This document shows positions 4,026 through 55,785 of a DNA stretch of 64,000 nucleotides, piece after piece. Each line of letters begins with the position of its first letter. Position 1 is the stretch's first letter. A program made the position numbers and the translations under genes. The notes under the pieces were generated by a model, which ran no database searches, had not been told where the DNA came from, and saw only the letters and a list, made by a program, of their open reading frames with translations. This stretch comes from a virus (taxonomy: Duplodnaviria > Caudoviricetes), in IMG/VR virus record IMGVR_UViG_3300014205_000002, positions 1-64,000 of that record. One strand, 5' to 3'.

Positions 4026-4057
4026 GATCGTGGACGTAAATGCTCATGGAGGACGTC

Positions 4058-4933
4058 ATGGCCGCACCCGTACACCCCGCTGTCGCGGCCCTCAGTCGCC
4101 TTGAGAAGCAGTCCGCACGCGACCAGCCCTACGTCTACCATGAGAATGGCAAGCGTCAGAGCGAGCTGTACCAGGCGCACGTCGACAAGGCGCGATCGAT
4201 GCGCCGTCGCCCGCTGGGCTCTGGGCACGTCGCCAACATTATGCGCGATCCACGCTACCAGGTCACCTCCGAGAAGCACGGTCCCAGCGAGGGTCGCTTC
4301 ACCGTTGGCGGTGCAGCCCTCGGCGCGGCTGCGACCACCGCGGGGGCGCTCGCGCTTGGCCGCACACCTTTGCGCAGCATCCAGGTTGAAGCGTTACTGG
4401 TCGCTCCGACCATGGGTGCGCTCGCCGGAGCTGCGGCCGGCCGCGCGCTCTCTGGTGCTCCCTCCAAGATGCGCGGCGAGTGGGCGACGGCGGTCGATCG
4501 CAACCGGCCCGGCACCGACGGCCGGCCGCGGGTGCCGCATGTCGACCCTAGGCCCTACCTCAAGAGCGACAAGCCGATCGAGCGCGAGTACGGCCAGTAC
4601 ATGATGGGCGAAGAGGCACCGGTCGATCGCCAGCACTTCGGTCGGGCGATCGGCGACGACGCTTACATTCACCGCATCGAGGAGATTGGCGGCGTCGAGG
4701 GAAAGAACCGCGCGGCAATGGGTCACGCCACGGCCATCGGGGCCGCTGCCGGCACCTATGCGGGGCTGGCCGCCGCCTTCAAAGGTGGTCCTGCTGGCGC
4801 TGCACTCGGGGTCGGCCTGCCGATCGCGGGGATGCTGGCCGGTCACATGGCGGGCAAGGCCATGGGGCAGGATGCTGGCAGCCGTGACGCAGAGCTGCGC
4901 GCGGCGATCGCGCGCACATCGAAAGCGATCTAG
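4058..4933 (+). CDS. glycine-zipper protein, putative internal head protein
   Basis: GGAGG at 4048-4052; two G/A-rich hydrophobic hairpins; LEKQSA near the N-terminus. Confidence 0.65.
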   Translation: MAAPVHPAVAALSRLEKQSARDQPYVYHENGKRQSELYQAHVDKARSMRRRPLGSGHVANIMRDPRYQVTSEKHGPSEGRFTVGGAALGAAATTAGALALGRTPLRSIQVEALLVAPTMGALAGAAAGRALSGAPSKMRGEWATAVDRNRPGTDGRPRVPHVDPRPYLKSDKPIEREYGQYMMGEEAPVDRQHFGRAIGDDAYIHRIEEIGGVEGKNRAAMGHATAIGAAAGTYAGLAAAFKGGPAGAALGVGLPIAGMLAGHMAGKAMGQDAGSRDAELRAAIARTSKAI

Positions 4934-4936
4934 CCC

Positions 4937-5647
4937 ATGGCGATCGCGTTGTGGCAGGCTTGGGATCAGGATCGCAGGACCGAGCGCCTGCGGCCCCTGC
5001 TGGCTGCGCACGCCACACTGATCGACCACGAGATCGGTCGCTGGGCGGGCTCGGGGCTGCCACCGGTGGCCTTGCGCGCGGAGGCGCGGAGGCTGACGCT
5101 CAACGCCTACAGGTCATTCGATCCCAGCAAGGGCGCGAACGTTGGAACCCATGTCGTCAACCATCTGCGCGGCCTCGACGCCTACGTCAGCCAGCACCGC
5201 GACCCCGTGCGCTTACCAGTCGAGCAGGCCCGAGTGGCGGACAAGGTCTACCGCGCGAAGCGGGAGCTGGAACTGGAGCTCGGACGCGAGGCGACGGTCG
5301 GCGAGGTGCGCGAGCGCGCGGGGGTCGGCAGCATCAACCTGGGCAACCTAGGGCGGCAGCAGGCTCGGCTGTACTCGCAGAACGAGGCCAGCGGCTACGA
5401 GCAGCCCGTGCGCGAGGACCTCACGCATGACGAACTCGTGCGCGACTTTCTGTATCACGACCTCACGCCGCGCCAACAGCTAGTGTTTGACCACATCACC
5501 GGCGGCAACGATCGCGAGGAGCTCGGCACTGTGGCGATCGCCGAGCGCTTGAACATGACCCCTGGGCGCGTGAGCGCCATCCGCAACCAGATCCGCACCA
5601 AGGCCGAGGGCTACCGCCTCGCCGTCAACAACCTGATGGAGGCTTAA
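4937..5647 (+). CDS. sigma70-family RNA polymerase sigma factor (FliA/WhiG-like architecture)
   Basis: Region 2 AYRSFDPSKGANVGTH, region 3 ELGREATVGEV, region 4 HTH LTPRQQLV...IAERLNMTPGRVSAI. Confidence 0.85.
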   Translation: MAIALWQAWDQDRRTERLRPLLAAHATLIDHEIGRWAGSGLPPVALRAEARRLTLNAYRSFDPSKGANVGTHVVNHLRGLDAYVSQHRDPVRLPVEQARVADKVYRAKRELELELGREATVGEVRERAGVGSINLGNLGRQQARLYSQNEASGYEQPVREDLTHDELVRDFLYHDLTPRQQLVFDHITGGNDREELGTVAIAERLNMTPGRVSAIRNQIRTKAEGYRLAVNNLMEA

Positions 5648-5649
5648 GC

Positions 5650-7107
5650 ATGAACGCGAAGGTACTGGGCGGTGCTGCGATCGGGGCGGTGGCTGGCGGG
5701 GCTTTTGGTTTAGGCCATGACCGAATGATCCCTGGCGCTCTGGCGGGCGCGGCGCTCGGGGCGATCGCTGGTGCGGGGGCGGCTAAGCTCCTGCGCAAGC
5801 CCCCGCCAAAGCGAACCTCCGCCTTCGTGCAGAATGCTGACAACGTTAGCGATGACCATGTCTTTGAAAATGGCGTGAGGGTCGATCGCGATGGACCCAC
5901 AGGGGATGCGACAGAACAAGGCACGCGAGTATTCAATCACCATGTACGTATCGGCAGAAAAGGCAGAGAGCTTCATAGGTCCAGTAATTCACGTATCGCC
6001 CACCATGGTGACGACATCTTTGTGAACGTTAGAAACCAGGAACTGGATGTCGTCGGGAGGGGCATGAGCACGAGTTACGCCACGACCATTCACGATGCGT
6101 TCCATTCCGACGACGTCGTGGACGACATAGTCAGCCACGCCGCTCAGCTCGGCCGCACCATCTCCCCTGAGCATCAAGACGAGATCCGCGGCGTGCTACG
6201 TCGGTTCGATCGAAAGAAGAAAGAGGCATCCATGCGTCCCTATGACCTATTTCTCAAGACACTGGAGGCTGAGGCATCCACCAAGTCGGCGCTAGGGCCC
6301 GACATAGCCGAGGCTGCCATGCACTTCGCTCGGGGCGTTGGTCACAACGCGAGCGGCATTGCTACCAAGGTCAAGAATTCTGTCGGTCGACATGTTGACG
6401 ACATCAAGGGTCGGATCGCCGAGTCGACAGCAGAGCGCATCGCAGGCCAAGCCGCCCCCCACATCCAGGGCCTAATCAGTCCCGAGGGCGTGGGGCGTAT
6501 GGTCGAGCAGCCGGGCGTGAAGAACCTGATCCGCGAGCATGTGGCCGAGGCGGCGGTCAGCCCGCTCGACCTGCTATTCGGCAAGCGCAAGACAGCCTCC
6601 GTTTCCGCTTGCGAGACGCGCTCCTACGACCTTTTCATGAGTCAGTTTGAGCTGAGCAAGAGCGCAAGCGCGCGCAACGCGGCGATCGACCGTCATGGCT
6701 TTGCGCCGACCGGTCCCGTGTTCGCGGCTAGGGAGCGCGCGCCCGTTGGCGAGAACGTCCGCGAGACCACGCAGGCATCGACGCCGATCTCGATGGCCCA
6801 GGCTACCAGGTACGACGAGAAGCAGGCGAACGCCTTACTCAAGGGCCTGGGTGGCGGCTTCTTGCTCGGAGCTGGCGGCGTGGCCGCGGCCGACAAGCTG
6901 AGCGACAACAAGCAGAAGGCCACCGCGGACATCCTGCGCTCGAAGGCCACCTACAACCGCAACCGTATTCGCTACCAGCAGACGTTCCAGAAGCTCGCGC
7001 CAGCGGCCCAGCGCGAGATCCTCAAGTCCTATGACGCCTATGCGGGCTCGGTCGCCCAGGGGGCCGAAGAGGGCCTCTACCCGGTGAGCGGGGCCTCGTT
7101 GTTCTGA
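5650..7107 (+). CDS. multi-module putative internal head protein
   Basis: Gly-zipper N-terminus; internal MRPYDLF and RSYDLF tags flanked by KEAS/KSA and KTAS/KSAS. Confidence 0.7.
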   Translation: MNAKVLGGAAIGAVAGGAFGLGHDRMIPGALAGAALGAIAGAGAAKLLRKPPPKRTSAFVQNADNVSDDHVFENGVRVDRDGPTGDATEQGTRVFNHHVRIGRKGRELHRSSNSRIAHHGDDIFVNVRNQELDVVGRGMSTSYATTIHDAFHSDDVVDDIVSHAAQLGRTISPEHQDEIRGVLRRFDRKKKEASMRPYDLFLKTLEAEASTKSALGPDIAEAAMHFARGVGHNASGIATKVKNSVGRHVDDIKGRIAESTAERIAGQAAPHIQGLISPEGVGRMVEQPGVKNLIREHVAEAAVSPLDLLFGKRKTASVSACETRSYDLFMSQFELSKSASARNAAIDRHGFAPTGPVFAARERAPVGENVRETTQASTPISMAQATRYDEKQANALLKGLGGGFLLGAGGVAAADKLSDNKQKATADILRSKATYNRNRIRYQQTFQKLAPAAQREILKSYDAYAGSVAQGAEEGLYPVSGASLF

Positions 7108-9305
7108 TGGATACCCGGCATGTCTTTGAGCGCTCGTTTGACGCGCTGATGCAGAACCCGCGCGCGAACGACTCCGCGATCCGTCGCCAGGTGCTGGGGG
7201 AGTTCGAGGACATCCCCCAGCCCGCTAAGCCGCCCGAGGGCAAGGCCGACTACCCCAAGGCGATCGGCCCTGATGAGGCGCTGCATCGCGTCATGGCGAG
7301 CAAGAACCATCAGCACAACCTTTCTGCGATGCCGCCCGCCGAGCGCAAACAGTGGATGGACATGTACGCCCACCGCTGGCTGGAAGGTCGGCACTTCACC
7401 CTGGTCGACCTGGCCCTGGAAAAGCTCGACCGCAAGGCCTTCGACCTCGACGAGCAGAAGGTCCAGAGCCTGGTCGACAAGCCGCCGAAGGACGACGGCA
7501 ACTTCCCGATCGTCAGCGGCTTTGATAAGAACGAGGGAGCCGAGCACGTCATCCTGGATGGCAACCACCGGGCCGAGGCGGCGATTCGCCGGGGAGACAA
7601 GACCATGCGCGCCTATGTTCGCGACGACCTGATCGAGGGCGGTGGCGCGTTTGCCGAGACCTGCGCCAAGGTCGCCTTCGACTTCCTCAAGGGCCTGGTG
7701 CCCGCCGCCAAAGCCCACATCAACTACATCGCCGCGACTGCTGGCGAGGCCCGCGCCCATGAGGTCGCGGACCTTGCGCACCACATCGTTGAGGGGCGCA
7801 AGAACCGCAAGGACAAGCGGGTTAAACTCAACGACGTCCTGGCCGTCCACCGCCAGGCCATGCTGAGCAAGAACGCCGCGCTCCTGCAAGCCGAGGACCT
7901 CGACGCCATGGCCGGCAAGGCTGACCTCCTGCGAGAGGTCGAGGCAATTCATGGGGGATGCGTGGCGGACCATGCCGCAGAGCTGGCGGGCGATGGCCCA
8001 GTCACGCGCGAGCATATCCAGACGGCCTGCTTCGCGAAAGCCGATGCGCCCAAGCCTGGCGAGAAGGGCTACTCGGACTACTTCTCCCGCGTCCTGAAAG
8101 AGAAGCTCGGCCAGAGCGAGAAGACAGCCGCGCTATTTGATCTGCCCGGCGTGGCTGAAGAACGCCAGCACCATGCTGACGACATTCGCCGCCATGCCGA
8201 AGCTTTAATCGCCTCTGATGCCAAATTCAAGGGGCACACGGCCGAGGTGGACGCAAACCCAGTGCGCATCCTCGGACTGTGGCACAGTCGCAAGCCGCGC
8301 TACTTTATTGACGTCAACATCAAGGATCCGGAGGGGAAGGCCATAACCGCCCCCGCTGGCGACGTCATTCAGCCAGGCCTTTCACTCACAATCGATCCCG
8401 ACAAGAGCTATCTGGATGGACTTAGCATTGCACCAGGGTTTCATGGGCGCGGCTATGGTGCGGCGTTGATGGGGATCTCCGAACGTCTGGCTTCCGATTC
8501 GGGCACCAAGCGCATCGGCGCGCATTCCGTCAACCCGATCTCCGCGCGCATGGCGCTCGGGGCTGGCTACCAGGTAGTAGGTCGACCAGAGGTGAAGGCA
8601 GAGCACATTCATATCGAGCGTGACAAGGGCCAAGAGTGGGACCTGGAGCGTCCAAACACCAGTCGCGGGCCGATTGGCCATGTGAGCGAAGGCCGCGAGA
8701 ATCCGTTCTCCTTGCTCACGCCCATCCGGAACCACTGGGGGCGCACGGCGGAAAAAGCGGCCGCAGACGACAGCGAGCGCCCCACCGTGTTCCTCGGCGG
8801 CAAGGTCTCTGGGCCTGACGGCAACTGGCGCAAGTCGATCGCCGACGGCATCCGCGACGCCGGCTGGGATGCCATCGACCCGAAGAAGAAGACCTGGACG
8901 CCCGAGAAGGACATCTACAAGGAGGTCGAGGGCATGCTCAATGCTGACCTGGTGGTATTCCATGAAGGCGGTACCTTCACGAAGCGTGAGAAAAAGCTCC
9001 TAGACGCTGTGGGCAAGCCCTACACCGAGGTCGATACCCCCGACGAGGTGCGCGAGCTCGTGGGCGACCCAGCGACCGCAGGCATGCTCGCCAAGGCCGC
9101 CTTCAATGCATCCTTGATCGTCGATCCGATCCGAAAGTTTACGCCCTCGGTATTCCCCCAAGACGCATTCGGTCACCCCATCACCAGCCTGCGCGCGGCC
9201 GCCGCCGGGGACAGCGCCATGCTGATCCTGCTGCGGCGCATCCGCGAGAACCCTGCCGACTTCCATGGCATCATCGCCCTGAACGCGATGCTCGCCGCCC
9301 GCTAA
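7107..9305 (+). CDS. polyvalent protein: ParB/Srx-like + GNAT acetyltransferase + nucleoside 2-deoxyribosyltransferase-like domains
   Basis: ILDGNHRAEAA (ParB-like); IAPGFHGRGYGAALM (GNAT motif A); VFLGG...WR...IDP...EVEGMLNADLVVF (NDT-like). Confidence 0.75.
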   Translation: MDTRHVFERSFDALMQNPRANDSAIRRQVLGEFEDIPQPAKPPEGKADYPKAIGPDEALHRVMASKNHQHNLSAMPPAERKQWMDMYAHRWLEGRHFTLVDLALEKLDRKAFDLDEQKVQSLVDKPPKDDGNFPIVSGFDKNEGAEHVILDGNHRAEAAIRRGDKTMRAYVRDDLIEGGGAFAETCAKVAFDFLKGLVPAAKAHINYIAATAGEARAHEVADLAHHIVEGRKNRKDKRVKLNDVLAVHRQAMLSKNAALLQAEDLDAMAGKADLLREVEAIHGGCVADHAAELAGDGPVTREHIQTACFAKADAPKPGEKGYSDYFSRVLKEKLGQSEKTAALFDLPGVAEERQHHADDIRRHAEALIASDAKFKGHTAEVDANPVRILGLWHSRKPRYFIDVNIKDPEGKAITAPAGDVIQPGLSLTIDPDKSYLDGLSIAPGFHGRGYGAALMGISERLASDSGTKRIGAHSVNPISARMALGAGYQVVGRPEVKAEHIHIERDKGQEWDLERPNTSRGPIGHVSEGRENPFSLLTPIRNHWGRTAEKAAADDSERPTVFLGGKVSGPDGNWRKSIADGIRDAGWDAIDPKKKTWTPEKDIYKEVEGMLNADLVVFHEGGTFTKREKKLLDAVGKPYTEVDTPDEVRELVGDPATAGMLAKAAFNASLIVDPIRKFTPSVFPQDAFGHPITSLRAAAAGDSAMLILLRRIRENPADFHGIIALNAMLAAR

Positions 9306-9315
9306 GGAGTAGCCC

Positions 9316-9888
9316 GTGAACCAGCACATCTCGCCCTACCGGGCCTTCTTGAACCACGCGATGGCCGGCCACAACATGGCCCCGCCGACGGTGCCGTTCG
9401 ACCACCAAGAGTCGGTCAGCAACCAGGACAGCACGGCGATCGCCAGGCTCCTGCCCGTCGTCGACGACGTCATCCTCGCGGGCGGGCGTATCGCCAAAGG
9501 ACTCGTGAAGATGAAGTTCGCCAAGGTCGACGAAGCGAGTGGGCTTCCAGAGGTGGTCGCGCACCCTTACCGGCATGCGCTGCCAAAAGAGCTGATCGGT
9601 GGTGCGGCTGCGACTCTCGTTGGCGCGACGCCTTTCGGTATGTGGGCGGGCCGGGCCATGGCCGCGCGCGATCACTCGCGTGCGATCCGTGGAATGGGCG
9701 ACAAGGCGAACGATCTGCCGACGAGCGTTCGCCACCCCTACGCCGTCCAGACCGCGCTCGACTTTGCGGTGACACCGTTGCTCTCAGGCCTCGCCGCATC
9801 CGTGATTCACCGCGGCGAGAAGCAGGACTATGTCGCCGATCAGCAGCGGCTGGAGAAGTCCAAGGCTGCCTACCAGCTGTACGCATAA
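9316..9888 (+). CDS. glycine-zipper protein, paralogue of 52738-53241
   Basis: AAGGAG RBS and GTG start; ISPYRAF tag-like segment; HPY...GGAAA...HSRAI...VRHPY. Confidence 0.65.
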   Translation: MNQHISPYRAFLNHAMAGHNMAPPTVPFDHQESVSNQDSTAIARLLPVVDDVILAGGRIAKGLVKMKFAKVDEASGLPEVVAHPYRHALPKELIGGAAATLVGATPFGMWAGRAMAARDHSRAIRGMGDKANDLPTSVRHPYAVQTALDFAVTPLLSGLAASVIHRGEKQDYVADQQRLEKSKAAYQLYA

Positions 9889-19816: not shown

Positions 19817-20068
19817 ATGGCGACCAAGTGTTACGCATACATCCTGGAAGGCATGACCGAGGCCGACCGAATCAGGCTTCACGAGATGATTCTCGCGGAG
19901 AAGCTGATCGCGAAGGCCGCGAGTCTCCAGACGTCCCGCGACAGCACTGGCCGCATGGTCCATAAGATGGAGGTGGTCGTCGACACAAAGACCACGCTCC
20001 AGTACATCGTGGACACCTTCTACACGGCCACGGATCGGGCGCTCGCGCCGGTGGAGTACCGCGGATGA
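19817..20068 (+). CDS. hypothetical protein
   Basis: GGAG RBS; ATGA coupling to the beta' C-terminal gene. Confidence 0.55.
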   Translation: MATKCYAYILEGMTEADRIRLHEMILAEKLIAKAASLQTSRDSTGRMVHKMEVVVDTKTTLQYIVDTFYTATDRALAPVEYRG

Positions 20069-21915
20069 TCACGACCGTCGGCGAGATCATGCTGCATGAG
20101 GCCTTGCCCGAGAACGTTCGCCCGACGGGCCCGATGAACAAGGGCGGCCTCTCCAAGCTGCTGCGTGCGGTCGCCGATCTGCATCCGAAGGACTACGGCA
20201 CGATCGTCGGGGCCATCAAGACGATCGGCAACCACGCGGCCTACGAGTCCGGCACCTCCTTTACCCTGGCCGACTTCAAGCCGCATGCAGCCGCGCGTGA
20301 CGCCGCCTTCGCCGCCCATCAGCCCGAACTCGACGCCCTGCATGCCGTGACCGATGCGACGCCGGCGCTCCAGCACGATCCCGCCCACCAGGGCCGGGTC
20401 GCGAGCGTCCACGCGCGCATCGAGGAGCACGTCAACCAGGGCGTCGCCCAGCGCATCCACGACGCCCCCAACGACTTGACGGCCTGGGTTGCCTCGGGAG
20501 CCCGTGGCGACGCCGCCACGGCCCGCCAGATGGTCGCGATGGCAGGCATGAACATCGACGTGACCAACAAGCTCGTACCCGGCATCGCCCGGCGCTCGTT
20601 TTCCGAGGGCCTCAGCCCGATCGACTTCCACATTCACGCCAACGGCGCGCGCCGGGGCGTCGTCAACACCTACACGAGCGTGCGCGAGCCCGGAGCCTTC
20701 GCCAAGGAGTTGAACACGCTGACGATGGACATGGTCGTGACCCAGGCCGACTGCGGCACCACCCAGGGCGTCGTCCTGCCGCCGGGGCACCCCGACGCCC
20801 TGGATCGCTGCCTCGCGCAAGACGTGCCAGGCATCGCGCACCGCAACGACATCTGGACGCCGGCGCTGGCCGAGGCCGCAAAGAAGCTGAACGGCACCAA
20901 GCCCGCCTTCCGCTCGCCGCTACACTGCCAGGCCCACGAGGGCGTCTGCGCGCGCTGCTACGGCCTGAATGAGGCCGGGCGCATGCCGCCCGTGGGCGAG
21001 CATGTGGGGCTGCGCGCAAGCCAGGCGCTGACCGAGCCCTTGACTCAGCTCGCATTGAATACCAAGCACACCGGCGGCGTCGTGGGCGCGGGCAAGAGTC
21101 CCTTCCAGCAGATCATGCAGGTCATGCACGCGCCGAAGAACTTCTCGGGCGTGGCGGTGCTTGCCCAGCGCGATGGCCCGGTCAAAGCGATCGAAGCTGC
21201 GGCCGCCGGCGGCTCACACGTGACGATCGGCGACGTGCGTCACTACGTCGCACCCGATCGCCAGCTCCAGGTGAAACTGGGTGACGTATTGCGCCGCGGA
21301 TCCGTACTGACGGACGGCACGCCGCACCCGGCCGAGGTCGTGCAGCACATGGGCATGGAGGCCGGCCGGGCCTACTTCGCGGGCAAACTCCAGCAGCTGT
21401 ACGGCGACGCCGGAATCCGCGGGCACGGCAAGATCTTCGAGACGATCGCCCGCTCCGTACTGAACCTCGGCCAGGTCGTGCATGCGGGCGACAGCGAGTT
21501 GATGCCCGGCGAGGTCGTGAACTGGAACTCCGTGGCCGCCCAGGTGGACGCCGCGCGCATTCAGACGGTGCCGATCGCCCAGGCCCAGGGGCGCATTCTC
21601 GCCTCGCCCGCAGGCAATCTCGACCGCTACCAGGTGGTCTCACCGAAGGCTGCGGGCGACCTCCAGCGCAAGGGCGTGAATCAGGTGCATGTCTACGCGC
21701 CCGACGCCCTGGTGATCAAACCGATGATGCTTGGCACCGAGCGTGCGGCCATGCACAAGGGCGACTGGATGGCCTCGCTCGGTTACCGCTTCATCGGCAG
21801 CCAGTTCAAGGAGAACGTCGCGGCCGCGGCCAGCGCAGACATCCACAGCTGGAACCCAATTGCGGCTTATGCCTACGGCGCTGAGTTCGGCCGCGGAGCC
21901 GAGGGGAGGTACTGA
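20065..21915 (+). CDS. rpoC: DNA-directed RNA polymerase beta' subunit, C-terminal part
   Basis: TTVGEIML, SGARG, SFSEGLS...GARRG (bridge helix region), DCGT, RSPLHC...VCARCYG, QALTEPLTQLALNTKHTGG (trigger loop). Confidence 0.92.
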   Translation: MITTVGEIMLHEALPENVRPTGPMNKGGLSKLLRAVADLHPKDYGTIVGAIKTIGNHAAYESGTSFTLADFKPHAAARDAAFAAHQPELDALHAVTDATPALQHDPAHQGRVASVHARIEEHVNQGVAQRIHDAPNDLTAWVASGARGDAATARQMVAMAGMNIDVTNKLVPGIARRSFSEGLSPIDFHIHANGARRGVVNTYTSVREPGAFAKELNTLTMDMVVTQADCGTTQGVVLPPGHPDALDRCLAQDVPGIAHRNDIWTPALAEAAKKLNGTKPAFRSPLHCQAHEGVCARCYGLNEAGRMPPVGEHVGLRASQALTEPLTQLALNTKHTGGVVGAGKSPFQQIMQVMHAPKNFSGVAVLAQRDGPVKAIEAAAAGGSHVTIGDVRHYVAPDRQLQVKLGDVLRRGSVLTDGTPHPAEVVQHMGMEAGRAYFAGKLQQLYGDAGIRGHGKIFETIARSVLNLGQVVHAGDSELMPGEVVNWNSVAAQVDAARIQTVPIAQAQGRILASPAGNLDRYQVVSPKAAGDLQRKGVNQVHVYAPDALVIKPMMLGTERAAMHKGDWMASLGYRFIGSQFKENVAAAASADIHSWNPIAAYAYGAEFGRGAEGRY

Positions 21916-47398: not shown

Positions 47399-48160
47399 AT
47401 GAACAACATCCGACCCGATCTGGACGCCATGGCCCGCGAGATTGCATCCGCGCCACTTGCATCCAACCGTGACCTTGAGGACGCGATCACCAAGATCGCG
47501 TCCGAGCGGGGTCTGTCGGCCGGGGTGATTCAGGCGCTCACGCCGCTGGTGAACCGGCATGTATACAAGCGCGCGATGCTCGATGGGCGCAAGGACGAGT
47601 CTCCGCTCGCCGACGCCGGGGCGATCTTGCACCGGATGCGCCCCGCTGCCACCAAGTCCGCCGCAGCGACCGCAGCTCCCACGGGCTTCGGCTCGGGCGG
47701 CATCGGCGTCGGCGGACAGTTCTCGGGCGCACCCAAGCCGCTCAATGTCGGCCCGATGATGACGGCCAAGTACGCGAGCCAGGAGCGCGGCCTGGAGACG
47801 GAAGTCAAGGGCTTGAACGCCCAGGTTCGCCAGGGCAAGCAAGAGATGATCGGCCTCGCCAAGTTCGCGCGGCAGGTCGGCCTGGTCGGCACCGCTGGCT
47901 TCGACGACCTGATCGCAGCCCAGCCGGAGTACGCGCAGTCGCTCATGCGCGAAGCGGTTGAGAAGTGTGCGGCCACGGTGTGGCCGTACTCGCCCGAGCA
48001 GCTCAAGCTCTACCTGCCCACCGCGATCGCGCAGATCGAGAAGATGGCGGCGATCGCGGGCTCGATTCACGACTCCGAGGTCGCGATCCTCGACGCCAAG
48101 GAAAAGCTCGACCATGTCCGTGCGGAGTTGGGCGTGTTTCGTGGAGGGTATCGCCTGTGA
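47399..48160 (+). CDS. putative prohead core protein
   Basis: Six K-x-A sites; helical composition. Confidence 0.65.
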   Translation: MNNIRPDLDAMAREIASAPLASNRDLEDAITKIASERGLSAGVIQALTPLVNRHVYKRAMLDGRKDESPLADAGAILHRMRPAATKSAAATAAPTGFGSGGIGVGGQFSGAPKPLNVGPMMTAKYASQERGLETEVKGLNAQVRQGKQEMIGLAKFARQVGLVGTAGFDDLIAAQPEYAQSLMREAVEKCAATVWPYSPEQLKLYLPTAIAQIEKMAAIAGSIHDSEVAILDAKEKLDHVRAELGVFRGGYRL

Positions 48161-48594
48161 GCTTCAACAAGGAAGCCTTCTGGGATCGCATTGCCGCTGG
48201 CGTCAAGGCTACGCTCAGTCAGCCAAAGATGCAGACCCAACTCGCGGTAGCGGCCGGCGTTGGCGCATTCGGTCTCGGCCAGATGGCCATGGGTCGGCTC
48301 GCCGAGCATCGCTCCTACAATCAGATGCTCGATCTCTACCCCGAGCTCAAGCGCGAGAACCCCGAGCAGGTCAAGCTCTACTTCGACACGATCCGCTCCT
48401 CCGCCCCCGGGCTCGCGAGGCAGCCGCTGGTCGCGGGCTCCGTGGTCAAGCGACTGGTGAACTTCGGCGGATTCGATCATGCCGTCTACAAGGATCTCCT
48501 CTCCGCCCAGAGCGTCATCAACGGTAACTCGGGCCACTTCGGCGAGCAGTTGCTGGGCCTCAACAAGACCGTCAACTCAATGCTCTCTCCCTAG
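48157..48594 (+). CDS. putative head-associated protein with one hydrophobic helix
   Basis: GTGA coupling and GGAGG RBS; NKEAFW near the start. Confidence 0.65.
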   Translation: MSFNKEAFWDRIAAGVKATLSQPKMQTQLAVAAGVGAFGLGQMAMGRLAEHRSYNQMLDLYPELKRENPEQVKLYFDTIRSSAPGLARQPLVAGSVVKRLVNFGGFDHAVYKDLLSAQSVINGNSGHFGEQLLGLNKTVNSMLSP

Positions 48595-48630
48595 CGTCCG
48601 CATCCCCAAAGCCCACCCACCCGGTCTCCC

Positions 48631-48637
48631 TATAATA
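48631..48637 (+). promoter_or_regulatory. TATAATA phage promoter
   Basis: CCCTATAATAC about 32 nt before ATG 48670. Confidence 0.75.
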
Positions 48638-48669
48638 CGGGTAGACAAGCGTCCACTCAGGAGGAAACC

Positions 48670-49152
48670 ATGTCCGCATTTGATCTGTTCATGACGATCC
48701 AGAATAAGAAGGCGAACGAAGCCGTCGGTGCCGGCTCCGTCGGCAACGGTCCCCAGAACATGGGGATGCAGGATTCTGACCCAGCCACCGCAACCAACAG
48801 CGCCCTCTCGGCCCAGCGCGCCGCAGCCTCGGCCGCACCGGTCGGCGTCGGCCTGGAGCCGGACGGCGGCATGGGCACAAACAAGTCTATCCCAACGGCG
48901 ATGCCTGGCCAGAACCTGTTCCAGGCCGTCGAGCAGGCTGCCGCCACCGGCAAGGTCGCCACGATCGTCGAGTACGCCAAGGGGTTCGCCGAACAGTGCA
49001 TGAATGTCAACATGCAGAACTACGCGAACACCAAGTCGGCATCGAGCGCCGAGCAAAACGCCTGGTTCGACAAGCTGGCTTCGAGCACGATCGAGGACGG
49101 CTACGAGATGGGCCGTCGTTTCGCGCTCCAGCGCCTGGCCGGCAAGGCGTAG
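48670..49152 (+). CDS. putative prohead core/internal protein
   Basis: AGGAGG RBS; MSAFDLF tag; KKA, KVA, KSAS, KLAS. Confidence 0.7.
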   Translation: MSAFDLFMTIQNKKANEAVGAGSVGNGPQNMGMQDSDPATATNSALSAQRAAASAAPVGVGLEPDGGMGTNKSIPTAMPGQNLFQAVEQAAATGKVATIVEYAKGFAEQCMNVNMQNYANTKSASSAEQNAWFDKLASSTIEDGYEMGRRFALQRLAGKA

Positions 49153-49169
49153 GCGTCAATCCGTCATGA

Positions 49170-49193
49170 GGGGCGGCGGGCAACCGCTGCCCC
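49170..49193 (+). other. GNRA-capped intergenic hairpin
   Basis: GGGGCGGCGG-GCAA-CCGCTGCCCC directly before the AGGAG RBS. Confidence 0.55.
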
Positions 49194-49206
49194 AGGAGTT
49201 TTCACG

Positions 49207-49860
49207 ATGCAGAAGCCCACGATCGGGGTCATCGCGCTCGCGGCGGCCGCCAAGGCCGCCAATGTCGGCGATCCCTACGATCAGATCGTCAACCCCGTCG
49301 CGAACACCGCTTCAACAGCGGCTCGCCATGCGGTGACGGGAGCTGGCATCGGGACCGGCCTCAGCACAGCCCTCGCGATTGCGACCAAGGGAAAGAAGAT
49401 CGGCATGCCCGGCATCGGCACCGCCGCCGTCGCCGGCGGCACGCTGGGCGGCATCTCCGGCGTGCATAATTCAAACCAGCATCGCCGCGAGGCCATGCTC
49501 CAGATGGGCATCCCCAAGATGGCCGGCCTGCTCGCGCTCGCAGCCACGGCCAAGAGCGCCGGCATGTGGGACGAGGCCGCCCGCGGCTGGAAGGCCTTCG
49601 ATTCGCGCCTCGTCCATGTGGGCACGGGTGTGCGCCGGGCGACGGAGATGGTCGGTGAAGGTCTTGAGAGCGTCGGGCGCGCCGGCACGGCGCTCAAGGG
49701 CGTGGGCGCGCAGATGAACGACCAGATCGCTGGCCGCATCGCCACCGGTGCCGCCTGGACACTGGGGATCGGTGCGGTCGCGAAGAACGTGGCCGAGCAG
49801 AAGATCCTCGACGAGCAGATCACCGCCCGCCGCCGCCAGGCTGCGGCCTACTACGGGTAG
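49207..49860 (+). CDS. glycine-zipper putative internal head protein
   Basis: Two LALAAxAKxA units each followed by G/A-rich helices. Confidence 0.65.
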   Translation: MQKPTIGVIALAAAAKAANVGDPYDQIVNPVANTASTAARHAVTGAGIGTGLSTALAIATKGKKIGMPGIGTAAVAGGTLGGISGVHNSNQHRREAMLQMGIPKMAGLLALAATAKSAGMWDEAARGWKAFDSRLVHVGTGVRRATEMVGEGLESVGRAGTALKGVGAQMNDQIAGRIATGAAWTLGIGAVAKNVAEQKILDEQITARRRQAAAYYG

Positions 49861-49866
49861 GCCGCC

Positions 49867-51252
49867 GTGGGCGAGTGGCAGGAAAAGATCATCCCATCGG
49901 GTGATCGCACATTCTTGAACGAGGGCGAGCAGCGCGTGACGCCGCTCGTGTCTTGCCACGGCCGCCTTGAGATCGACGATCGACGCGGGCGCACCAAGGT
50001 CGCCGCCGCCGAAGAGGCGCTTGAAGCCGCCGCCAAGATCACGCCGGTGGCCGGCCGCGTCTACATCCTAAACGTGGCGCTGGGCTCGTTTGAGTTCTGG
50101 GGCGACAACAACAACGGCGACGCCTTCCCCGAAGCCGGCCTCCTGGGCCTGCCACCGGCGGACGTGCCGATGTCGTTCTTCGACCGCCTCGCCGCACGCA
50201 TGAAGGGTAAGGACTGGGGGCACAAGACCTTCCTGAACGGCCACACCTTTGAGGAGCACCGGAACACCGATCCGTCACTCGCGATCGGCGGCATCGCAGG
50301 CACCTACTGGAACGATCGCATGCACCGCTGCGAGAACATCCTCTGGATCGACCGCAAGAAGGGTGCGAAGTGGGCCACCCGTATCGACGCCGGCGAGCCG
50401 GTCGGCACCTCAATGGCCTGCAAGATCCCCTTTGATCGCTGTTCGCGGTGCGGCAACCTCGCGGTCACCCGCGTGAGCTACTGCCAGCACCTCAAGCCGG
50501 GCATCAACTCCCAGAACCGTCACATCCTCGCGGACGGCCTGCGCGTGTGCATGATGAACGACTTCCCCTGGTTCTTCGACGACTCGATGGTCGAGAACCC
50601 CGCTGCCCCAGAGGCCCTGACGCTCATGAAGATCGCGAGTGCGCCCGCCGTCCCCGCCAAACGCGCCGAACTGACCAAGGACACGCCGGACCTCCCCAGC
50701 GACGTGATGGCCGACGAGGAGGCCCTGGCCCTCTATGACGCCGAACAGCGGCTGCCGATCGAAGCCCTCGCAAAGCTCGCGGGCCTCGGCCTGCCGTCGA
50801 TCCTGGAGGCCAGTGAACGACTAGGCATGGCGCTGCGCCCGAGTGAAGTCTTCGCCCTGCACTTCGGCCTCAAGTACGCCAGCGACGACACCATTGACCT
50901 CGATCGGCTCGCGGTGCGCCGCCCGGTTCGATACGATGACGTCGATCTCTCTGCGCTCAAGTCCGCAGGCCAGCCACTTGCCCCCAGCTGGGACTTTCGC
51001 AAGGTCGCGCGGGCCCAGGCGCTGCTGGCCCCCTTCGCGCCCAGCCGCTCCTATCTACCCGAGCACCTGGTCGGCCGGCTTGTCCGGCTCGCGAAGTCTG
51101 CCGCCAGACTTTCTCCGCCGATCATGAGCGAGCGCGCCGACAGCCAGCTCGCGATCTACCACGCGCTTTGCAAGCTCGCATCGGGTCGCGTCGGCGTCGC
51201 CAGGCCGAATGCGGCCGCGATCACGCGCCTGCTCGCCGAGGGGCCAGCATGA
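49867..51252 (+). CDS. putative prohead maturation protease with Zn finger
   Basis: NNNGDAF, EEH, TSMAC...CSRC...YCQH, DDSMVENPA; located upstream of the capsid genes. Confidence 0.7.
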   Translation: MGEWQEKIIPSGDRTFLNEGEQRVTPLVSCHGRLEIDDRRGRTKVAAAEEALEAAAKITPVAGRVYILNVALGSFEFWGDNNNGDAFPEAGLLGLPPADVPMSFFDRLAARMKGKDWGHKTFLNGHTFEEHRNTDPSLAIGGIAGTYWNDRMHRCENILWIDRKKGAKWATRIDAGEPVGTSMACKIPFDRCSRCGNLAVTRVSYCQHLKPGINSQNRHILADGLRVCMMNDFPWFFDDSMVENPAAPEALTLMKIASAPAVPAKRAELTKDTPDLPSDVMADEEALALYDAEQRLPIEALAKLAGLGLPSILEASERLGMALRPSEVFALHFGLKYASDDTIDLDRLAVRRPVRYDDVDLSALKSAGQPLAPSWDFRKVARAQALLAPFAPSRSYLPEHLVGRLVRLAKSAARLSPPIMSERADSQLAIYHALCKLASGRVGVARPNAAAITRLLAEGPA

Positions 51253-51551
51253 GCCGGCCCTACGACGCCTTCATGGCGCACATGAAGCGCGCCGCCGACG
51301 AGGAGGCCAGCCTGGCCGCCTACTTCCAGCGCAGCAAGGGCGAGCTGGCGCACAACGCCACCAGCAATGTTCTCTACGGACTCCTTAGCAACCCCCGCGG
51401 GGGCGGCCCGGTGTCCGTGATGGGGGCCAGCGCAGGGGGCGTCATCGACGGCCTGCTGTTCAAGCCCATGGTGGACGCCACCGCCCACGCGATCGGCAAG
51501 GGCCTGGCCCTGGTCGACCGCAACCGATCCCCGAAGCCAGACGCCCTATAA
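51249..51551 (+). CDS. small tagged putative internal head protein
   Basis: ATGA coupling; MSRPYDAFMAHMKRAA. Confidence 0.65.
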   Translation: MSRPYDAFMAHMKRAADEEASLAAYFQRSKGELAHNATSNVLYGLLSNPRGGGPVSVMGASAGGVIDGLLFKPMVDATAHAIGKGLALVDRNRSPKPDAL

Positions 51552-51553
51552 TA
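51547..51553 (+). promoter_or_regulatory. TATAATA phage promoter
   Basis: CCCTATAATACC, overlapping the upstream TAA. Confidence 0.75.
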
Positions 51554-51577
51554 CCTTCAAGGGAGGACACGACCGCC

Positions 51578-52063
51578 ATGACGACCCTCAATATCGAATC
51601 GCTGATCAATCAGATCACCACGAAGCGCGCCAGCGAGGATTCCGCCGCCGCCCCTGCGGCCCCTGCGCCCGCAGATACCAGCACCCCCCAGAAGCAGGCC
51701 TCGGTTGACCTCGGCACGCCCGAAGGTCTCAAAGCCAGCATCGACGCACTGTCGCCCGAGGTGAAGGCGGCCTGCATGGTCGAAGCGCTCACCATGCTCC
51801 AGGCCGACGACGCCCGCCTGGGCCTCGCCACCGCTGTCGGCGAGAAGTCCGCTGGTCAGACGGTCGACTTCCAGACGCTGACTGCCGAGGAGAAGGCATC
51901 GTTCGAGAATGCGTTCAACGACCACAGCGCCAAGCTTGCGTCGGAGAACCCAGACTACGCCCTGTTCCTGAATATCGAAGCCGTCAAGATGGCTTTCGAT
52001 CAGGGCGCAGAAGACGCCGAGCAGGAGGTCCTCAAGCGGGCCTCCGAGAAGACCGGCCAGTAG
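51578..52063 (+). CDS. putative scaffold/core protein
   Basis: GGAGG RBS; acidic; 7 of 10 Lys are in K-x-A. Confidence 0.7.
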   Translation: MTTLNIESLINQITTKRASEDSAAAPAAPAPADTSTPQKQASVDLGTPEGLKASIDALSPEVKAACMVEALTMLQADDARLGLATAVGEKSAGQTVDFQTLTAEEKASFENAFNDHSAKLASENPDYALFLNIEAVKMAFDQGAEDAEQEVLKRASEKTGQ

Positions 52064-52086
52064 GCCGGGCGCGAAGGAGAACCCCT

Positions 52087-52431
52087 ATGTCCGCTTTCGA
52101 TCAGTTTTTCAATGGCATCACCGCTGCGCCCGCAACGCCCGCCGTCAAACAGGCCGCCGAGACCCAGGTCAAAGTAGCCTTCGACTCGCCGGCGGAAGAG
52201 GCCTTCTGGGAGGGCCTCGCCAGTGGCGACAAGCAGGCGGCCCGCTCCGGCGACGACACCATCGCCGCCAAGGACCTGTTTGAGGACATCTTCGACCTCC
52301 ACACGACCAAGTTGGCGTCAACCAACCCCGAGTACGCCCATGTCCTGCGCGTCCTGGCCGTGAAAGAGGCCTTCGAGGCCGGGCACGACGAGACGATAGC
52401 CTCGGCTCAGGCCGTCGGCATCGTCCAGTAG
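52087..52431 (+). CDS. putative scaffold/core protein, paralogue of 51578-52063
   Basis: AAGGAG RBS; MSAFDQF tag; 5 of 6 Lys are in K-x-A. Confidence 0.7.
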   Translation: MSAFDQFFNGITAAPATPAVKQAAETQVKVAFDSPAEEAFWEGLASGDKQAARSGDDTIAAKDLFEDIFDLHTTKLASTNPEYAHVLRVLAVKEAFEAGHDETIASAQAVGIVQ

Positions 52432-52441
52432 GGGCGCGCCG

Positions 52442-52735
52442 ATGAAAACCTGGCAGACCGATGTCGACGACCTGCGAAAGCAGGCGTCTGACAAGATGCG
52501 GGAAGCCGCAGACATACTCGCGGTCGCCAGCCAGGAGAAGGCAGCGAGCCAGGACGAGTCCGATCGGGCGATCATCGACAAGAAGCTCGCCTCGATCTAC
52601 ACGAACCTGCTCTATGCGGATCTGGCGAAGACGGCAACCGAGGCCATCAAGTCGGCCAGGCAGATCCCCGCTGCCGCCCCCGGCATGGCCCATGCGGGCC
52701 TGGTCGCCCAGGCTCTACTCTTGAGGGCCGTCTAA
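52442..52735 (+). CDS. putative core protein
   Basis: MKTWQ start; 5 of 8 Lys are in K-x-A. Confidence 0.65.
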   Translation: MKTWQTDVDDLRKQASDKMREAADILAVASQEKAASQDESDRAIIDKKLASIYTNLLYADLAKTATEAIKSARQIPAAAPGMAHAGLVAQALLLRAV

Positions 52736-52737
52736 AC

Positions 52738-53241
52738 ATGGATCGCGCGACCAGTCACTGGCTCGCCAAGGCCGCCGAGGCACTCGCCCCGGCGGTCGAT
52801 CCTGCCTGCACGGCTGCCGACGCGCTGACGCTGATCGCCTACGGTGAGATCGCCAAGCGCGCGGCGATCGATCTCGGCAACGAGATCGAGCATCCTTTTA
52901 AGCGCTACTGGCTCCACCGGGTCGGCGGAGCCGCCGCAGGCGCTGCGGCCGGAGCTGGCGTATCAGCGCTTGCGGGCAGCCGAGGCCTGGCCCTGGTGCC
53001 CGGCGCGCTCGCCGGTGCATTCGTGGGTGAAAAGGGCGGGGAGATCAAGAGTCTCGCCAACCACGCCCGTGCGGTCGATGAACTGGAACTTTCGGGGCAC
53101 CATGTGCCGGATGCGGTACGCCATCCCCACCTCTATGGGACCGTGGCCCACCATGCGGCCGTTCGCGGAATGAAAGATCGCGTCGCAGCCGCCCAGGCGA
53201 TGATGCTGTCCGCCATGCCGATCGAGCCCCCAGCGCCATGA
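52738..53241 (+). CDS. glycine-zipper protein, paralogue of 9316-9888
   Basis: HPF...GGAAAG...HARAV...VRHPH. Confidence 0.65.
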   Translation: MDRATSHWLAKAAEALAPAVDPACTAADALTLIAYGEIAKRAAIDLGNEIEHPFKRYWLHRVGGAAAGAAAGAGVSALAGSRGLALVPGALAGAFVGEKGGEIKSLANHARAVDELELSGHHVPDAVRHPHLYGTVAHHAAVRGMKDRVAAAQAMMLSAMPIEPPAP

Positions 53242-54191
53242 TCAACCCGCAGATGCACCGTGCCATCGTCCGGCCCGAGAACAGCAGCCTGATCCTCGGG
53301 GGTCTGCATCACCTGGCGTCCGGTGCCGCCAAGCTTGTCGGCAAGGAACTGCCAAAGCATCTCGACCCCGCCGAACTGGGGGCCGCTGCCGCACGCGGGG
53401 CGGAGCGGATCGACTTCCATGCGGGACGTGCGGCCCAGTCGATCGCGCGCCACGCCGGCCTGGATGCGCATCTGCCCAAGGGGCTGTTCGCGCGCAGTGA
53501 ACAGGCCACTCTGTCGAGCAAGCGGATCCGCGCCCTGGGCGACGAAATAGACGGCCTGCGCACCACCGATGCGACCAAGGCTAAGGCCCTTGAGGACGAT
53601 CTGAATACGCTCGTGAAAACTCACTATAATAAGGGCGAGACCTTCCAGGGACTGCGGGACTTGGCGAGCGACGACTCATTCGCGGCAACGCTCCACAACG
53701 TGGAGGTGCCAAGCCTCACCGGCGAAGCCGGCAAGATGGTCAAGAACGTCGGAACCGACGTCGCCGCCATCTACGGAGCGGGTGAGATCACCGAGAAAGT
53801 TCGCCAGGCCCGTGCATCTGGTTCCGGACCGACCAATCTCCCATCGCGAGGGAAACCCGATATGACTGATTCCTACGCCAAGGCCGCGACCCTCATGAAA
53901 GAGGCCGCCGAGCTGTTTGATGCCGCATCCGTGAAGGAGCGTGCGTGCAAGCAGGCCCAGCAGCTCCTGGACGAGAGCGCGATCGATGCGGGGGAGTTCC
54001 CGAAGTATGCGGCACTGTTTGAAAAGCAGTCCGCGGAGGACGCCGACACGATGGTTGCGGGGATGCTCCGCGGCCATGCGGGCTCTAGCAAGAGCGCGAG
54101 TTTTGGTGATCCCGTTCCCATTTCCGATGCTCAGGCCGAAGGCGGCCAAGGCCGCTTTGAAGCCCTGTGTCGGTCGAAGGCCGGCCACTGA
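53238..54191 (+). CDS. putative scaffold protein, likely with an internal start at 53862
   Basis: ATGA coupling; the C-terminal 109 aa are helical and K-x-A rich with their own RBS. Confidence 0.6.
   Translation: MINPQMHRAIVRPENSSLILGGLHHLASGAAKLVGKELPKHLDPAELGAAAARGAERIDFHAGRAAQSIARHAGLDAHLPKGLFARSEQATLSSKRIRALGDEIDGLRTTDATKAKALEDDLNTLVKTHYNKGETFQGLRDLASDDSFAATLHNVEVPSLTGEAGKMVKNVGTDVAAIYGAGEITEKVRQARASGSGPTNLPSRGKPDMTDSYAKAATLMKEAAELFDAASVKERACKQAQQLLDESAIDAGEFPKYAALFEKQSAEDADTMVAGMLRGHAGSSKSASFGDPVPISDAQAEGGQGRFEALCRSKAGH
53826..53837 (+). promoter_or_regulatory. GG[AT]CCGACCAAT operator-like motif
   Basis: Upstream of in-frame ATG 53862; leader similar to 63565-63599. Confidence 0.45.
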
Positions 54192-54801: not shown

Positions 54802-54831
54802 CCCCCCACCCGCATCAACAAGGAGACCGTG

Positions 54832-55785
54832 ATGTCTTTCGCGAATACCAGCGCATCCCCGAACCCCATGGATGCGCGCATGATGAACCAGGGCTTCCTG
54901 AACCTGGTCAAGGAAGGCCCCGACGGGGTCAAGCAAGCTGCAACGGGCATCAACGAGGACATCATCCTCACGACGCTCCGTGAAGACGGCATCGCGCGCC
55001 GCGTGATGCCCTTCGCCCCGATCACCGCAGATCAGCTCGTGGTGGACATCAATAATCCTGATGTCCCAATGACAACAGTACCAGTGGAACCCTCTTTTGG
55101 CGAGTATATCGCCATGGCCGTCGACTACATGCAGGCGTCGAAGGATCTCTGGTTCCGCACCCAGGTCGCTCCCGTCTACTTCAAGCCGATCAAGACGAAG
55201 ACCCTCAAGATGCACGAGGCGCAGCTCCTGGCGTCGCCTTTCCCCATCAAGACCTTCATCGAGTCGGTCGCGCGCAACGACATGCTCGCCGTCGAGGACC
55301 ACTTCCTGATCGGTGCCATCGAGCGCTGCGTCGCGAAGTACGCCGCGACGAACAACATCAGCTCGCTGGGCACCCTCGACAAGGACCACATCGCCGACGC
55401 CACGCAGGCGATGGTCAACAACCGCCTGTCTGCGGAGATGATTCTTGTCAATGAGGTAACTTACCTCGATATTTTGCGCTGGAAGTCCGATACGTACGGT
55501 AGCCATGTTGTCAAAGACCTGGTCGACTTCGGACCCAAGGGCGAGGCCCTCAAGTACAAGTCGTGGATGGGCTTCCGCTGGATCCTGACCAACAACCAGG
55601 ACATCATCGCGAAGGACACGCTCTACTACCTCCCCTCCCTCAAGTACCTCGGCATCGCGTACATGTTGGCGGATGCGGAACAGTGGATCGAGTACCGCGA
55701 CGGCGTGCTCAGCACGAACACCCGCGAGATCATCGGGCGCAACCTGGTGAACGCCCGTGCGCCGATCAAGCAGAACCTGACCTAA
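54832..55785 (+). CDS. major capsid protein (presumed HK97 fold)
   Basis: Position after protease/scaffold/decoration genes; LREDGIARRVMP, ILVNEVTYLDILRW; strong RBS; stem-loop follows. Confidence 0.75.
   Translation: MSFANTSASPNPMDARMMNQGFLNLVKEGPDGVKQAATGINEDIILTTLREDGIARRVMPFAPITADQLVVDINNPDVPMTTVPVEPSFGEYIAMAVDYMQASKDLWFRTQVAPVYFKPIKTKTLKMHEAQLLASPFPIKTFIESVARNDMLAVEDHFLIGAIERCVAKYAATNNISSLGTLDKDHIADATQAMVNNRLSAEMILVNEVTYLDILRWKSDTYGSHVVKDLVDFGPKGEALKYKSWMGFRWILTNNQDIIAKDTLYYLPSLKYLGIAYMLADAEQWIEYRDGVLSTNTREIIGRNLVNARAPIKQNLT

Follow-up and report, generated by a model that had tools for sequence, protein, structure and literature searches.

Does a single long gene of an uncultured giant phage encode several enzymes that enter the capsid as one chain and are separated there by the prohead protease? 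The question is raised by P0001, an open reading frame (ORF) of 732 amino acids (aa) in the 64,000-bp window analysed here, which covers the opening 64 kb of a metagenomic virus record, one contig of 208,264 bp (IMGVR_UViG_3300014205_000002). A first-pass annotation of the window had read this ORF as a mosaic polyvalent protein whose enzyme domains are separated by K-x-A motifs (Lys, any residue, Ala), packaged, and cut by the prohead protease into free effectors. Judged by its sequence, P0001 holds up as a mosaic polyvalent protein: unrelated modules stand in one ORF and are shuffled among relatives. We put the chance that it is also a cargo protein, packaged and processed in trans by the prohead protease, at about even. 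The ORF is real and open, and its domain order is as first described. Its parts are as follows.

7107..9305, + strand: P0001, open throughout, 732 aa, 80.2 kDa
7218..7634, + strand (aa 38-176): ParB/sulfiredoxin (Srx)-like module, a homology family, with DGNHR at aa 151-155
7668..7676, + strand: K188-V-A190, junction just after the ParB-like module
7677..7868, + strand (aa 191-254): helical segment, kept in the closest relative P0002; low-confidence helices in the structure model
7869..7877, + strand: K255-N-A257, left boundary of the stretch not shared with P0002
7878..8120, + strand (aa 258-338): variable helical part, with a GGC-x-x-D module at aa 283-288 and the tag-like YSDYF
8121..8129, + strand: K339-T-A341, in coil with a predicted local distance difference test (pLDDT) score below 50 (residues 334-349), ahead of the GNAT block
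8130..8753, + strand (aa 342-549): GNAT acetyltransferase block, with the Pfam match at aa 397-481, GRGYGA at aa 447-452, and a GC content at third codon positions (GC3) of 0.69
8754..8762, + strand: K550-A-A552, right edge of the variable segment, before the nucleoside 2-deoxyribosyltransferase (NDT)-like module
8772..9071, + strand (aa 556-655): NDT-like module, pLDDT above 90, with a fold match
9093..9101, + strand: K663-A-A665, start of the C-terminal tail
9102..9302, + strand (aa 666-732): C-terminal tail module, x-x-x-[VI]-P-V-D ... P-S-x-F-P-E/Q-D ... G-H-x-x-T-x-L-R-A

Four of these five K-x-A sites had been listed before and are real, whereas K255-N-A257 had been overlooked; the earlier coordinates 7668 and 9093 are correct, but 8118 and 8751 mark the preceding Glu (the Lys codons begin at 8121 and 8754). 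Because the count is at expectation (5 seen versus 6.6 expected, i.e., the bare motif is not enriched), the motif alone is meaningless in P0001 and the signal is its position. Sites within folded domains had been named as evidence against cleavage, and none was found: all five lie outside the domains, a placement reached in 13 of 2951 five-site shuffles (p about 0.004) when the domains (476 of 732 residues) were set without the motif, i.e., ParB from homology, GNAT from Atlas and Pfam, and NDT from its fold match. In the structure model, the five sites fall in low-confidence stretches between folded parts, and K339 and K550 flank the GNAT block, which had been placed between two sites. Extended K-x-A motifs that look enriched in P0001 were picked post hoc.

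The domain assignments differ in strength. The GNAT domain is well identified by Pfam PF00583 (Acetyltransf_1; aa 397-481, 23.8 bits, gathering cut-off 20.7), by the acetyl-CoA motif G-R-G-Y-G-A at aa 447-452, and by Atlas feature and structure matches that are GNATs without exception (residues about 349-521). At the sequence level, a word-index search with aa 340-552 returned no match at E up to 0.001, and an exhaustive phmmer search found no relative spanning aa 262-554 of P0001. The NDT-like domain, a putative nucleotide glycosidase/transferase, is likewise upheld, even though Pfam PF15891 (aa 559-619, 26.8 bits, E 7e-6) is under its 30-bit gathering cut-off: the VIA structure alignment of P0001, which covered residues 556-662, matched 6qai_B with Z 11.2 and a root-mean-square deviation (rmsd) of 2.5 over 98 aligned residues, and its top nine rows were all NDT, MilB, or YtoQ. 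All NDT-like members of the alignment, in which some ParB-only fragments were placed wrongly on NDT columns, share the Glu of a T-x-x-E motif (E628), which would correspond to the catalytic Glu after strand 4 of the NDT fold.

The ParB/Srx-like identity of the first module is weakly supported. The module belongs to a family of at least 15 other proteins, in which it occupies N-terminal, central, or C-terminal positions, and in D151-G-N-H-R155 the D, G, and H are invariant among 15 homologues, with R substituted in three. A profile of the 15 aligned DGNHR with the G-S/C-H-R of sulfiredoxins, which favors the original assignment, but the E-values were 0.08-0.24, and Pfam ddrB-ParB (PF18763) was sub-threshold (E 0.003-0.005) in a few family members, with no hit for P0001 itself. 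The tail, comprising the last 67 residues, is conserved and invariably the final module of its carrier proteins; its family had no Pfam match, no usable Atlas feature match, and only structure rows below TM 0.5. A small helical module, in which G-G-C-x-x-D (window positions 7953-7970, aa 283-288) is separated by about 25 residues from a T-x-x-D/H-h-x-x-A end, recurs in the homologues P0002, P0004, P0011, P0014, P0016, and P0017. The full-length model has a mean pLDDT of 58, with residues 414-546 of the GNAT block below 50, and Foldseek searches with the whole models of P0001 and of the protease described below returned nothing at E up to 0.001. Whole P0001 had no tblastn match among 50,697 phage records, and no paralogue of any of its modules was found in the phage's own genome.

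Do relatives use the same joints? The ParB-like and NDT-like modules are found in dozens of architectures, in many orders and with many partners. Among 19 proteins of the lineage (baseline 0.17 per window scanned), K-x-A precedes the NDT-like module in 7/7, and K-x-A-[F/Y] opens the tail in 11/12; the motif follows the ParB-like module in 7/12 homologues as K-I-A, K-E-A, K-A-A, K-L-A, or K-Y-A (same baseline). Over the 19 proteins, K-x-A is depleted inside modules (10 versus 32.5 expected) and enriched outside them (84 versus 50 expected). A complete relative genome (203.7 kb) encodes a 793-aa protein with four K-x-A, every one at a module joint. Among distant, Lys-rich NDT-like proteins (P0020-P0087), there is often a K/R-x-A-S at the start of a helix that lies about 17 residues ahead of the domain; K-x-A is found at this pre-domain helix in 26/55 (baseline 0.12), and several of these proteins start exactly at the motif, which may be a cut site in other phage groups or belong to the domain.

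The joints are also where modules have been replaced, as comparison with the closest relative, P0002 (574 aa), makes plain. Its gene has the same neighbors (sigma factor gene, upstream gene, downstream gene, and RNA polymerase [RNAP] gene), which in the window form this row:

4040-4933, + strand: modular cargo-like neighbor gene
4937-5647, + strand: sigma-70-like gene
5650-7107, + strand: modular cargo-like neighbor gene, directly upstream of P0001
9316-9888, + strand: modular cargo-like neighbor gene, downstream of P0001
9898-15765, + strand: RNA polymerase gene, 1955 aa, beta plus the N-terminal part of beta'

P0002 retains aa 29-261 (70% identity) and aa 555-730 (82% identity) of P0001, and its middle is unrelated, shorter, and without GNAT. 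DNA homology stops at gene nucleotide 765 (codon 255) and restarts at codon 557, so that the replaced segment is framed by K255-N-A and K550-A-A in P0001 and by K-R-A and K-R-A in P0002. This is the situation that the first-pass annotation had proposed looking for, i.e., homologues with different domains between conserved linkers. Both breakpoints lie 0-6 residues from a K-x-A site, and the same applies to the three neighbor genes. ORF 4040-4933 ends in S-K-A-I-stop at the point where its counterpart has A-K-A-A and goes on for 261 further residues. ORF 5650-7107 is extended at the N-terminus by a module that closes with K-E-A, immediately ahead of the sequence that equals the relative's start, and it also holds an internal variable segment with K-S-A at both ends. 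ORF 9316-9888 diverges from its counterpart right after K-F-A. The exchange of domains as cassettes is thus borne out in P0001 and in all three neighbors, and use of the joints as module-exchange points is, on these alignments, demonstrated. Since the joints are unstructured linkers of a standard kind, whole modules could be inserted, lost, or swapped without harm to their neighbors.

We also asked whether the joints hold a recombination signal at the level of the DNA, and rejected this. The Ala codons at the sites vary (GCC, GCG, GCA, and GCT), which points to selection, and thus conservation, at the protein level.

Codon usage sets one module apart. GC3 in the GNAT block (aa 342-548) is 0.686, versus 0.84-0.86 in every other segment (Fisher p 3e-6), which confirms the excess of A/T-ending codons reported earlier; the first and second codon positions show no change in GC. 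Because of this dip in GC3, the GNAT block fits a later arrival than the rest of the protein.

Several observations on the neighbor genes stand beside these results. ORFs 4040-4933, 5650-7107, and 9316-9888 contain Gly/Ala-rich hydrophobic stretches and internal leader-like tags (R-P-Y-D-L-F, R-S-Y-D-L-F), each followed by K-x-A. Their counterparts in the closest relative are shorter or longer by whole modules. The relative's 261-residue C-terminal module (L002:6938-8590, after A-K-A-A) has no Pfam match and is a candidate effector cassette.

Why should K-x-A have anything to do with a capsid protease? The answer comes from the head genes, of which three features matter here.

47399..54191, + strand: head-gene cluster of small proteins rich in K-x-A (3-fold enrichment), not part of the polyprotein
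49867..51252, + strand: prohead protease candidate, 461 aa, with its core at about aa 52-258 bracketed by K44-V-A46 and K255-I-A257 and a C-terminal part dense in K-x-A
54931..54939, + strand: K-Q-A of the major capsid protein candidate (aa 35-37 of ORF 54829-55785)

Genome-wide, K-x-A is enriched only in this head cluster and in one portal-adjacent gene (63 versus 21.3 expected), and the seen/expected ratio in the remaining 221 genes is 1.00. A purely compositional origin in Ala/Lys-rich linkers was rejected by control motifs: A-x-K, K-A, A-K, K-x-x-A, R-x-A, and E-x-A stay at 0.6-1.1 where K-x-A is enriched. The portal-adjacent gene lies outside the window (G000:C1:73025-74185, - strand), adjoining the portal gene (about 70484-72187); its 386-aa product has the strongest K-x-A enrichment of the genome (14 versus 2.9 expected) and may be a scaffold or core protein.

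The protease candidate has a weak PHROG match to head maturation proteases, and its model (pLDDT 84) has a core whose best VIA fold match is T4 gp21 (5jbl_A; Z 9.8, rmsd 3.2, 129 residues), followed by 32 structure rows that are all herpes assemblins (Z 5.2-9.2). As modelled, the core of ORF 49867 therefore has the T4 gp21/herpes assemblin fold. A phmmer search of the protease against PDB sequences returned only a chance zinc-ribbon match. In an alignment of 25 homologues, H131 and S182, the candidate catalytic residues, are invariant; K44/A46 are likewise invariant (25/25), K255/A257 are present in 23/25, and the C-terminal parts of the homologues hold 206 K-x-A versus 53 expected. An invariant D-x-C-x-x-C ... 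C-x-H cluster at aa 190-208, inside the core, looks like a zinc-binding insertion, which is not known for T4 gp21 or the herpes assemblins.

In the capsid protein, the position aligned to K-Q-A reads K-L-A, K-V-A, and K-V-A in three relatives (55-58% identity) and K-E-A in gp226, the capsid protein of Salmonella phage Arash, whose head proteins gp220, gp222, gp223, and gp225 are also enriched in K-x-A. The residue after the Ala is mostly Ser or Ala, and in Arash a hydrophobic residue stands five before the presumed cut in 29/32 sites. K-x-A is thus likely the recognition motif of the prohead protease in this phage clade, with the cut probably after Ala and the next residue Ser, Ala, Gly, or Phe. 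The link between K-x-A and the prohead protease, which had been proposed earlier, gains from the head-specific enrichment, the bracketed protease core, the capsid protein site, and the gp21/assemblin fold.

The gene row ties P0001 to this setting. The record carries a portal, capsid protein, protease, and RNAP that match phage Arash, which places P0001 in a phage-encoded setting. Arash is the nearest cultured phage (identities: RNAP 35%, protease 37%, portal 26%, capsid protein 21%), and closer relatives, at 55-83% identity, are metagenomic contigs only. The start of P0001 overlaps the stop of the upstream gene (ATGA), and the same-strand genes around it are separated by intergenic gaps of -1 to 10 bp. 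The Arash virion proteome includes the RNAP beta and beta' subunits and a sigma factor (PMC10585845); the coverage figures in Table 2 of that paper cannot locate N-termini. The sequencing runs that contain this DNA comprise one landfill metagenome, which may be its source, and include no RNA run.

On this evidence, P0001 would be made alongside the sigma factor and RNAP of the same gene row and would enter the prohead, where the prohead protease would cut it in trans at up to five sites into pieces of about 21.5, 7.4, 8.9, 22.9, 12.3, and 7.3 kDa; these would exit the capsid with the DNA. Of the packaged, protease-cut polyprotein proposed at the outset, the mosaic, the cassettes at K-x-A, and the protease code stand, while its central steps, i.e., packaging, cutting, and injection, together with the enzymatic and effector roles (acetylation, nucleotide cleavage, anti-defence), are what we infer from them.

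Several points weigh against cleavage or packaging. The bare motif is at expectation in P0001, K188 and K255 are placed by the model within helices of low confidence, and the middle of the protein is poorly modelled (overall mean pLDDT 58). Packaging is suggested solely by the gene row and by analogy with Arash. The first K-x-A of P0001 is at aa 188, and its N-terminus has only a tag-like S-F-D-A-L (aa 10-14); the protein thus lacks the K-x-A-terminated N-terminal leader present in many homologues, neighbor genes, and head proteins. Some K-x-A may be unused fusion scars, and those at the tail start and before NDT could be part of these modules rather than cut sites. Some homologues have K-V-A inside the ParB-like module, which means that the motif alone implies no cut. 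By analogy, P0001 might also escape cleavage, as most SPN3US head proteins (42) escape their prohead protease (PMC10052503).

The tag-like YSDYF at aa 322-326 (nucleotides 8070-8084), 13 residues ahead of the next K-x-A, was set aside as evidence for P0001. A strict tag expression, [YF][DE]x[FY] followed by K-x-A, has seven matches genome-wide versus 1.75 expected, and does not match YSDYF.

The alternative that survives best, though we judge it unlikely, is that P0001 is packaged and injected largely as one chain, with at most the tail or one joint cut and the other K-x-A left unused from the fusion of separate tagged cargo genes. Such a history is visible in the upstream gene, whose internal K-E-A plus tag corresponds to the relative's gene start, and perhaps in P0001, where the tag-like YSDYF and then K-T-A stand ahead of the GNAT block. 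Delivery without cutting is known for the N4 virion RNA polymerase (vRNAP) and several plasmid polyvalent proteins (PMC5512222), the majority of SPN3US head proteins are uncut (PMC10052503), and the positions of K188 and K255 within predicted helices agree with this account. It explains less well why the junction motifs survive long divergence while x and the flanks vary, which suggests present use, and why the motif is depleted inside modules.

We also doubt, and rank next, that P0001 is a cytoplasmic multi-enzyme protein (e.g., for nucleotide/DNA metabolism or modification) rather than cargo, with K-x-A as flexible linkers that tolerate recombination. The lack of an N-terminal leader bearing a cut site and the unremarkable K-x-A count would follow naturally, and NDT-like, GNAT, and ParB-like enzymes also serve nucleotide/DNA metabolism. 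Linkers of this kind would not, however, leave same-composition control motifs unenriched where K-x-A is enriched, nor would they place K-x-A around the protease core and at the capsid protein N-terminus. The gene, moreover, lies between those for a sigma factor and an RNAP, and in Arash the corresponding proteins were detected in virions (PMC10585845), and its neighbor genes and homologues carry head-type leaders. The closest Pfam family of the first module, by weak scores, is ddrB-ParB, whose prototype, P1 DdrB, is a head protein (PMC9024508). Chance placement of K-x-A in an Ala- and Lys-rich protein, to which the count of 5 versus 6.6 expected and the post hoc choice of the extended motifs lend themselves, is highly improbable given the placement outside domains (p about 0.004), the proximity of both P0002 breakpoints to a site (0-6 residues; likewise in the three neighbor genes), and the conservation of the junctions among homologues.

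How does a packaged and cut P0001 compare with known systems? Polyvalent proteins of phages and conjugative elements were described by Iyer, Burroughs, Anand, de Souza, and Aravind in 2017 (PMC5512222). P0001 resembles them in being phage-encoded, in combining several unrelated enzymatic conflict-type domains, in its mosaic relation to relatives, and in its ParB-superfamily module, whose weak best Pfam match, ddrB-ParB, was defined in that study. Processing was proposed there to rely on an embedded zincin-like metallopeptidase domain, which is frequent but not obligatory (PMC5512222). By contrast, no peptidase family, including zincin-like metallopeptidases, was detected when P0001 was scanned with Pfam and PHROGs at E up to 1, and the processing that we propose would be left to the capsid protease, acting in trans on standard joints. 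The word 'deoxyribosyltransferase' is absent from the text of PMC5512222, and neither the GNAT plus NDT-like combination nor the conserved C-terminal tail comes from its catalogue. P1 DdrB, a head protein of the Dar antirestriction system with a ParB-like domain (PMC5512222, PMC9024508), also carries a ParB-superfamily module in a large phage protein and is head-associated and processed before or during packaging. Unlike P0001, which has no Pfam hit for this family, DdrB has a C-terminal metallopeptidase domain, and its protease and site are different.

The T4 protease cuts after Glu at L/I-x-E and that of phiKZ at S/A/G-x-E. The T4 internal proteins IPI-III and Alt carry a capsid targeting sequence, are cleaved by gp21, and are then injected (PMC9026906). 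Shared with T4 are a protease of the same predicted fold, a cargo set that varies between related phages, and short aromatic-containing leaders ending in the protease motif, here in neighbor genes, head proteins, and homologues. T4 trims terminal propeptides of single-domain proteins, whereas in P0001 the K-x-A motifs lie between modules and there is no cleavable leader. The SPN3US prohead protease cuts after Glu at A-x-E and processes ejection/inner-body proteins (PMC10052503). Like SPN3US and phiKZ-type phages (proteases gp245/gp175), this is a giant phage that would have a virion RNAP, many packaged proteins, and one short motif for capsid protein, protease, and cargo; unlike them, it belongs to a different lineage, their motif is A-x-E or S/A/G-x-E, and their known cuts yield N-terminal propeptides. 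Herpes assemblins are closer in chemistry and cut after Ala, before Ser or Thr, with pseudorabies virus (PrV) sites Y-L-Q-A/T and V-Q-A/S (PMC4498786). The protease fold (Z 7-9.2), the Ala before the predicted cut with Ser/Thr/Ala after it, and the predicted release of the protease from its own C-terminal extension are all common to both. Differences are the Lys three before the predicted cut, where herpes has a hydrophobic residue, and the herpes substrates, which are scaffold and protease only, with no enzyme cargo.

Polyvalent proteins and protease-processed capsid cargo are thus known kinds, and the K-x-A protease specificity is the part that is probably new. Somewhat short of an even chance, we would extend the proposal to the giant-phage clade from this phage to Arash, in which a protease of gp21/assemblin fold, with a K-x-A specificity not described before, would provide the joint at which injected enzyme polyproteins are built, cut, and evolved. 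Its cut would follow Ala, as with herpesviruses, in place of the Glu used by T4 and phiKZ; enzymes such as GNAT, NDT-like, and ParB-like modules would be set free within the capsid, and a new effector could be gained by inserting it between two joints. If this is true, one gene supplies several independent enzymes to the host at infection, and the capsid protease site doubles as an evolutionary plug-in point for counter-defence modules, so that the diversity of effectors injected by giant phages would be accounted for. Protease biochemistry would also gain a new specificity that can be tested, in a phage group with a cultured representative (Arash), and capsid engineering a natural model for packing several foreign proteins from one construct. 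The GNAT block, a sequence-level orphan with foreign codon usage, offers a concrete case of recent module capture.

The RNAP gene downstream of P0001 has features of its own. In its 1955-aa ORF, beta (with Rpb2 domains 3 and 6) is joined to an N-terminal portion of beta' (with Rpb1 domains 1 and 2); another beta'-like gene is found at 20065-21915. The fused ORF is interrupted at about aa 1448-1867 by an intein that has a LAGLIDADG domain and was apparently inserted right after the D-x-D-G-D catalytic motif.

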